A stretch of 9,973 nt of DNA from a virus (Duplodnaviria; Heunggongvirae; Uroviricota; Caudoviricetes): IMG/VR virus record IMGVR_UViG_2645727991_000023, positions 1 through 9,973 of that record, one strand, 5' to 3'. This document shows, one piece after another, positions 4,827 to 5,166 of this stretch (positions within the stretch are counted from its first letter, which is position 1; the number at the start of each line of letters is the position of its first letter). A program made the position numbers and the translations under genes. The notes under the pieces were generated by a model that did not search any database, was not told where the DNA came from, and was given only the letters and a program-made list of their open reading frames with translations.

Positions 4827-5166
4827 TAGCTAACCAACGAAGCTAAGGTTGGTAATTAAGGAGTTCTCCACGGGTGAGGTGGAGTGCGTGCGCCGGACAC
4901 GGGTGAGCATCCGGCACTGACAGTTTACTGAAAGGATATTTCCCTGAAAAGTCAGGGCATAACGCGAAAGCGCACGGCGAGGTAGCTGGTTCATAGATAG
5001 CCTGTCGTTAAATTTTCGTCGACCGTGCGCTTCCGGTTGTGGCACTCCGCGAAATGGCGCGGCGGTAAGTATGGCGGGGTTATTCCTTCCCCGTTGAGGA
5101 CACCGGGTTGTCAGGTTGACCATACGCTTAAGTGACAACCCCGCTGCAACGCCCTCTGTTATCAAT

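Follow-up and report, generated by a model that had tools for sequence, protein, structure and literature searches.

An RNase III processing helix and a separate conserved RNA domain probably form one RNA cassette with DicF in a Qin/Rac-like prophage

Helices cut by RNase III flank and release stable RNAs or control leaders, as in rRNA precursors, at R1.1 of phage T7 and at the N-leader site of phage lambda. [quoted passage not shown] The ~190-nt species is lost in an rnc mutant of K-12 (Ragunathan et al. 2023, PMC10448788), and the RNase III requirement for its 5' end goes back to Faubladier 1990, going by the way PMC10448788 cites and confirms that work. Primer extension placed the RNase III cut within a sequence that starts at position 4981 in the numbering used here (PMC10448788). 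The 53-nt DicF needs RNase E, the 190-nt form rises on RNase E inactivation, and both forms accumulate in stationary phase (PMC10448788). Terminated species, namely the 53-nt DicF and a 1146-nt transcript, dominate in K-12, and a read-through transcript becomes visible only on inactivation of RNase E (PMC10448788). A 72-nt DicF species owes its 3' end, at about our position 5238, to RNase III. A site dependent on RNase III is reported at K-12 coordinate 1649470, between dicF and dicB, which is our position 5255. Published work treats the region between the two cuts that define the 190-nt and 53-nt forms as a spacer. No description of the structure or conservation of 5036-5150 was found in the literature on dicBF (a coverage without the P1 genome paper and the Bouche papers of 1990 and 1994), a full-text search for the sequence of this interval found no paper, and no usable site for the upstream cut was found in RNase III transcriptome papers. 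A second described element to which the locus can be compared is put of phage HK022, which consists of two stem-loops in ~73 nt and suppresses termination by way of the zinc-binding domain in the beta' subunit of RNA polymerase.

RNase III processing upstream of DicF has been known since 1990 and was re-confirmed in 2023; on this point, our only addition is that the site is intact in the present copy. Beyond it, our analysis indicates that the interval is probably a single RNA cassette, made of an RNase III helix (stem 1) and a separate folded domain that includes a second stem (stem 2), with a proposed outer stem absent. On this reading, the 137 nt that separate the RNase III cut from the RNase E cut are a folded, covarying domain and no passive spacer.

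The window, by which we mean the whole 9,973-nt stretch of DNA that was analysed, covers the early region of a Qin/Rac-like prophage, lambdoid and intact. Replication genes, ydaT, a cro-like gene and a gene for a repressor come first, after which the plus strand carries ydfC, an untranslated leader of 340 nt beginning past the ydfC stop codon, DicF, dicB, ydfD, an exonuclease gene, xis and int. The two genes that border the leader and DicF are as follows.

4608-4826, plus strand: ydfC coding sequence, from the open reading frame list, PHROG 1744, its annotation in genomes with an identical or near-identical leader, and its collinear position in K-12.
5394-5582, plus strand: dicB, the first gene 3' of the cassette, from PHROG 1251 and its annotation in a matching genome.

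Between ydfC and the point where dicB begins, the window aligns collinearly with Qin of E. coli K-12 (window position = K-12 coordinate - 1644215). Locus and gene order are the same as in K-12, as is the placing of the 190-nt 5' end in stem 1 and of the 72-nt 3' end in a second long stem, but the window is a different prophage copy with a G at position 5205, within DicF. Across the non-coding interval 4958-5396, which takes in the processing stem, the domain, DicF and an STnc100-like element, the two differ at 4 of 439 nt, versus a divergence of ~25% in dicB and ydfD (5397-5800 compared). Two readings of this contrast are a mosaic boundary falling sharply at the dicB start codon and a far stronger constraint on the RNA part; the domain is better conserved than dicB. 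A 404-nt leader query matched 4436 of 5426 complete E. coli genomes. Expression of dicB requires read-through of the DicF terminator.

The original prediction had singled out three reverse-complementary pairs in the leader, and all three are exact: stem 1, AAGCGCACGG (4968-4977) with CCGTGCGCTT (5023-5032); stem 2, GGGTTGTCA (5105-5113) with TGACAACCC (5133-5141); and a pair proposed to enclose stem 2, CGTTG (5092-5096) with CAACG (5147-5151). None of them can be extended as a perfect helix. When 4827-5230 was shuffled 2000 times with dinucleotides preserved, 1.8% of shuffles contained a perfect stem of 10 bp or more closing a loop of no more than 60 nt, 7% had at least one stem of 9 bp, and 0.15% had two perfect stems of 9 bp or more; the two long stems thus exceed chance, as had been claimed. 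The 5-bp outer stem is not beyond chance. Folding of 4827-5230 by minimum energy (z = -2.76) yields both long stems and leaves the outer stem unused.

Stem 1 is the core of a longer helix with the following arms.

4958-4980, plus strand: 5' arm of the extended stem 1, containing 4968-4977; RNase III processing helix.
5019-5041, plus strand: 3' arm of the extended stem 1, containing 5023-5032; 5036-5041 doubles as the 5' strand of domain helix P1.

The extended helix has ~21 bp, one A.C mismatch and two single-base bulges, with a duplex energy of -33.4 kcal/mol. Its outer part runs from C4958-G5041 to C4963-G5036 (6 bp), followed by bulged G4964 and the pairs C4965-G5035 and G4966-C5034; the inner part consists of the A4967.C5033 mismatch, the 10 perfect bp, bulged A5022 and C4978-G5021 to A4980-U5019 (3 bp). 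It lies in the ydfC-dicF untranslated region. Provided that both the 190-nt and the 53-nt species end at the terminator, the length difference (190 - 53 = 137; 5167 - 137 = 5030) puts the 5' end of the 190-nt species at ~5030, ~137 nt 5' of DicF. The RNase III cut would then be at about 5029/5030, accurate to a few nt, inside CCGTGCGCTT and at the centre of the extended helix, with about two turns of duplex around it. A length of ~21 bp centred at ~5030 suits RNase III. The helix differs from that of K-12 at one position (4975, C here and T in K-12), and stem 2 at none. The identification of stem 1 with the published RNase III site is supported by this near-identity, by which rnc dependence is transferred from K-12. 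The claim that the stems are RNase III sites upstream of DicF accordingly survives for stem 1, within which the published 190-nt 5' end falls.

The helix shares with classical RNase III helices an irregular duplex of ~20 bp with a bulge and a mismatch, a cut near the centre and membership of a pair that brackets the released unit. It differs from them in that its 3' arm overlaps P1, the first helix of the released domain, so that cleavage could also act as a refolding trigger.

Among 39 distinct Qin-type homologues, the arms of stem 1 are 95% identical, and the loop between them varies strongly, with 28 distinct versions. Single changes in the arms were wobble-compatible in 14 instances versus ~11 that mismatch, and no double compensatory change was found in these 39 sequences. 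Other phage types carry an equivalent long stem of different sequence in the same place, formed by GUGCAACGAUGAGGGCA with UGCUCUCAGCGUUGUGG in the cdtI type and by CACAACGAUGAGAGCA with UGCUCUCUUCGUUGUG in the F1055/L029 type. These duplexes have energies of -30 to -40 kcal/mol, and their 3' arms end in the GUUGUGG that opens the domain as the 5' strand of P1. Since the arm sequences differ and a long duplex is found at the same place, the architecture is conserved beyond the sequence.

Immediately 3' of the cut lies a domain with the following elements.

5036-5150, plus strand: conserved structured RNA domain of ~115 nt, with four helices and a pseudoknot.
5036-5043/5143-5150, plus strand: P1, the closing helix of the domain.
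5047-5051/5058-5062, plus strand: helix P2.
5064-5066/5102-5104, plus strand: possible 3-bp helix, invariant in homologues, so that covariation is uninformative.
5069-5074 (GUAUGG) with 5120-5125 (CCAUAC), plus strand: pseudoknot, from covariation.
5075-5079/5089-5093, plus strand: P3, a variable hairpin with a C/U-rich loop.
5092-5096, plus strand: CGTTG, the 5' half of the outer stem originally proposed; it overlaps the 3' side of P3 and the following junction, and pairing with 5147-5151 is unsupported.
5105-5113/5133-5141, plus strand: P4, which is stem 2, with an inner extension 5114-5116/5126-5128.

The structure was evaluated on an alignment of 49 distinct sequences, drawn from 120 viral contigs with the core motif and from annotated phage loci, with a mean column identity of 87%. 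In these homologues 95.8% of cells pair; sliding the 3' partners by 1-3 columns lowers this to 33-54%. Changes on both sides affect 9 pairs and 24 cells, versus 3.2 cells in shuffles; they come mostly from a few lineages (P1-type, cdtI-type, L080, L285 and P3 variants), and because the family is narrow and closely related the number of independent covariation events is small. P4 changes from GUUGUCA/UGACAAC to GUUGCCA/UGGCAAC in phage P1, and an A.C mismatch of cdtI becomes A-U in L080. In helix P1, C-G is replaced by U-A in the cdtI type. P3 changes from CGGGG/CCCCG to CUGGG/CCCAG, CGAGG/CCUCG or CAGGUG/CACCUG. The pseudoknot exchanges U-A for C-G (GUAUGG/CCAUAC to GCAUGG/CCAUGC) in phage P1 and, independently, in the Qin-type contig L285. 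As to conservation and compensatory change, then, stem 2 shows both, and stem 1 is kept in sequence within the Qin type without the double changes. The nested outer stem, by contrast with P1, is contradicted by the homologues: 69% of cells pair, the CGTTG sequence is missing from variants with other P3 hairpins, and CAAC (5147-5150) pairs instead with GTTG (5036-5039) in 95% of cells.

Folded in isolation by minimum energy, the domain adopts the same architecture in five lambdoid variants, including that of the window; a sixth, L072, keeps P2-P4 with a shifted closing helix. The minimum-energy fold of the P1-phage domain does not give the domain structure, and its closing helix was located by eye. 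Model R1 scores the domain of the window at 162 bits. The P3 loop (5080-5088) is always C/U-rich though the hairpin varies, as in UUAUUCCUU, UUUCCUCCAUUG, ACUCCUUCA and UAUCCUUU. This loop resembles the anti-Shine-Dalgarno sequence.

Several other assignments were considered for the region and set aside. RNAalifold also pairs 5069-5070 with 5100-5101, but P1-type sequences disrupt this pairing and retain the pseudoknot. A riboswitch-style pairing of the domain's GGCGGUA with the 3' arm of the terminator occurs when the 190-nt RNA is folded by minimum energy, but the terminator of phage P1 does not allow it. As for a tRNA or tRNA-like element, ARAGORN finds nothing in the window, and the only match, to mascRNA, is at chance level (E = 7.6). 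Even with E values allowed up to 10, Rfam yielded no family for 4958-5150.

BLAST searches with the leader showed 5036-5158 to be a block that moves on its own. Phage cdtI and the Stx2c phages, which are without the DicF seed, carry it at 89% identity. P1/P7 carry it at 77-82% identity, right behind Pban, the promoter controlled by C1, and there the record labels it 'dicF-like region'. Further copies occur in Salmonella phage F1055 and in what was deposited as an Actinobacillus phage. The domain hence occurs independently of DicF, phage P1 included, and is carried by four phage types with different flanks. The family is found in Escherichia, Shigella, Salmonella and a few Klebsiella plasmids, a breadth that rests on searches of phages, plasmids and viral contigs. 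A scan of a genome collection with the 15-base pattern CAGGTTGACCATNCGC gave nearly all chance matches, among which model R1 confirmed a locus of Escherichia albertii only. The candidate distant homologue L252 (16 bits) was rejected, as it is without the pseudoknot partner and looks like repetitive coding sequence.

The domain is positioned in the leader of the early operon that starts just 3' of the repressor gene. The order in cdtI is a promoter matching 11/12 of the consensus, ~280 nt of sequence, the domain, a terminator and the complete set of early-left genes. Phage P1 has no upstream stem, and its domain starts ~35 nt past the Pban -10 element; a strong terminator 3' of the domain separates it from the tRNA genes, tciABC and ban.

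The downstream part of the cassette in the window comprises three features.

5151-5166, plus strand: A/U-rich single-stranded spacer; the RNase E cut at 5166/5167 makes the 5' end of the 53-nt DicF (mapped K-12 dicF annotation and literature).
5167-5219, plus strand: DicF sRNA (53 nt), with a terminator hairpin at ~5182-5218 and a U run at 5220-5224 (K-12 annotation and Rfam).
5229-5247/5358-5376, plus strand: second long-range stem, 19 nt and 89% complementary, enclosing an STnc100-like structure.

DicF is fully matched by Rfam RF00039 at 5168-5219 (75 bits versus a gathering score of 48), the sole match above threshold, and differs from K-12 DicF at one position, the G at 5205. Between dicF and dicB, RF02076 (STnc100) matches 5231-5371 with 34 bits (E = 1.3e-5), below its gathering score, and a similar sub-threshold STnc100 match is found upstream of tciA in phage P1 (L001 4342-4461). 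Stems 1 and 2 are outside both models, upstream of the DicF match. The second long stem is probably the downstream RNase III site that gives the 3' end of the 72-nt DicF. A long stem after the terminator is present in cdtI and F1055 as well, and the recurring unit is long stem, domain, spacer, terminator, long stem.

A hairpin with a T run follows helix P1 of the domain by 11-33 nt in 156 of the 159 copies with enough flanking sequence; in the other three, terminators had been missed by the filter. The sequence between domain and terminator varies, being the DicF seed here, other sequences in L003, L004, L018 and L078, and ~10 nt in cdtI and P1. In L003, L004, L018, L072, L078 and L098 the domain is followed by different spacers and DicF-like terminators, for example CCCAUGUUGAUUACCUUUU and UCCAUGUGUAGUCUUU. 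Such variants may be DicF-family sRNAs with other seeds and targets. A separate observation concerns a perfect 9-nt inverted repeat between the 5' seed of DicF, GGTGACGTT (5172-5180), and AACGTCACC (5336-5344) in the dicB leader, ~50 nt 5' of the dicB ribosome-binding site. Judged by complementarity, DicF could pair in cis or in trans with the mRNA of its own operon.

A mechanism can be proposed for the cassette. In K-12, RNase III makes the 5' end of the 190-nt species and the 3' end of the 72-nt species, RNase E makes the 5' end of the 53-nt DicF and the terminator sets the 3' end; the first of these steps is transferred to the window by near-identity. Here RNase III would cut the polycistronic dicB-operon transcript at ~5030, within the ~21-bp helix, and create the 5'-monophosphate end of the ~190-nt species. 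The cut would remove the upstream arm, which can pair with GUUGUG (5036-5041), and may thereby leave this strand free to close P1. The released RNA, as the covariation suggests, would keep a compact pseudoknotted 5' domain (5036-5150) in which P4 is stem 2. RNase E would then cut the spacer at 5166/5167 to give the 53-nt DicF, ending at its own intrinsic terminator, and read-through transcripts would be trimmed by RNase III at the second long stem (5229-47/5358-76).

What the domain itself might do is more tentative. A role as the structured body of an excised stable RNA, in which it would shield the 5' end, gate RNase E and have a conserved partner of its own, is a genuine possibility under this model, short of being probable, and could explain the accumulation of the long DicF form. 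Within this reading the domain would probably have a sequence-specific partner, because its loops are more conserved than the DicF seed. It is rather doubtful, though still worth weighing, that the domain represents an undescribed phage RNA family with one of two activities, processive antitermination by RNA alone or that of the active body in an early RNA of ~150-190 nt to which DicF is a lineage-specific 3' appendage.

The alternative that fares best is unlikely in our estimation. By analogy with put, the domain would act in cis as a processive antiterminator, modifying the RNA polymerase that transcribes it and so permitting partial read-through of the next terminator (that of DicF here) to dicB and later genes, with the RNase III stems secondary. 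Like put, the domain is an RNA positioned 5' of terminators in the early-operon leader of lambdoid phages without a recognised N protein: in cdtI, P1, F1055 and Qin an early promoter lies upstream and terminators downstream, the intrinsic terminator is always 11-33 nt 3' of the domain, genes lie beyond it in cdtI and in P1, where the domain directly follows Pban, and no N-like protein was recognised among the first downstream ORFs. HK022 putL occupies the same position and acts without a need for tethering to the transcript. An activity of this kind, which for the domain is only hypothesised, could explain expression of dicB, ban and the early-left genes past a terminator in phages without a recognised N-like antiterminator and, if true, would make the domain a second kind of RNA-only processive antiterminator besides put. 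The fold, however, is unlike that of put (four helices and a pseudoknot in 115 nt versus two stem-loops in ~73 nt), sequence similarity is lacking and HK022 was absent from the phage BLAST matches. In K-12, moreover, terminated species dominate, with read-through visible only under RNase E inactivation, and the Qin-type domain is ~950 nt from its promoter.

It is very unlikely that the domain has no function of its own and owes its conservation to recent horizontal spread of a recombination module or to a minus-strand protein gene, with the stems incidental. The family is indeed narrow and very similar in sequence, and hypothetical proteins are annotated on the minus strand across the domain in several records. 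Those annotations, however, disagree in frame and extent between records, and 1-nt indels in P3, which would break a reading frame, are common among near-identical copies and so rule out the coding explanation. Against a mere passenger stand the helices, which pair through two-sided changes and not with partners slid by one column, the 4 differences from K-12 over 4958-5396 versus ~25% in dicB/ydfD, and the retention of the domain by four phage types with different flanks.

Least likely of all is the reading in which stem 2 with its outer pair, as well as stem 1, is an RNase III site for processing of the leader 5' of DicF: perfect pairing in both long stems is more than chance would give, and P1 and P4, one nucleotide apart on the 3' side (5142), could stack into ~20 quasi-continuous bp, a length usable by RNase III, but the 190-nt RNA containing stem 2 accumulates intact in wild type and more so with RNase E inactivated, no processing product starting or ending in 5105-5141 is reported in the DicF processing literature examined, stem 2 alone has 9 bp, and the outer stem is unconserved. 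The assignment of stem 2 as helix P4 of a conserved multi-helix domain is favoured by the alignment. Being part of the 190-nt RNA, a stable species in rnc+ cells, and having only 9 bp plus 3 after a 4-nt bulge, stem 2 is very unlikely to be an RNase III target, and this part of the original prediction is not upheld.

Some minor features of the window were also observed. A hairpin, CCCTGAAAAGTCAGGG (4943-4958), lies immediately 5' of the processing stem; CCCTGAAAA within it is common to lambda boxB, and the hairpin is missing from variants without ydfC. It is possibly a nut-like relic. The exonuclease gene is present as two overlapping ORFs, 5864-7738 and 7558-8337, and as one 2475-nt CDS in a genome with an identical leader, which suggests a frameshift or a pseudogene in the window copy. 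Further perfect inverted repeats of 10-11 bp with short loops are found at 682-692/723-733, 3427-3436/3454-3463 and 6727-6736/6761-6770, the second of which (3427-3463) sits between the divergent cro-like and repressor genes.
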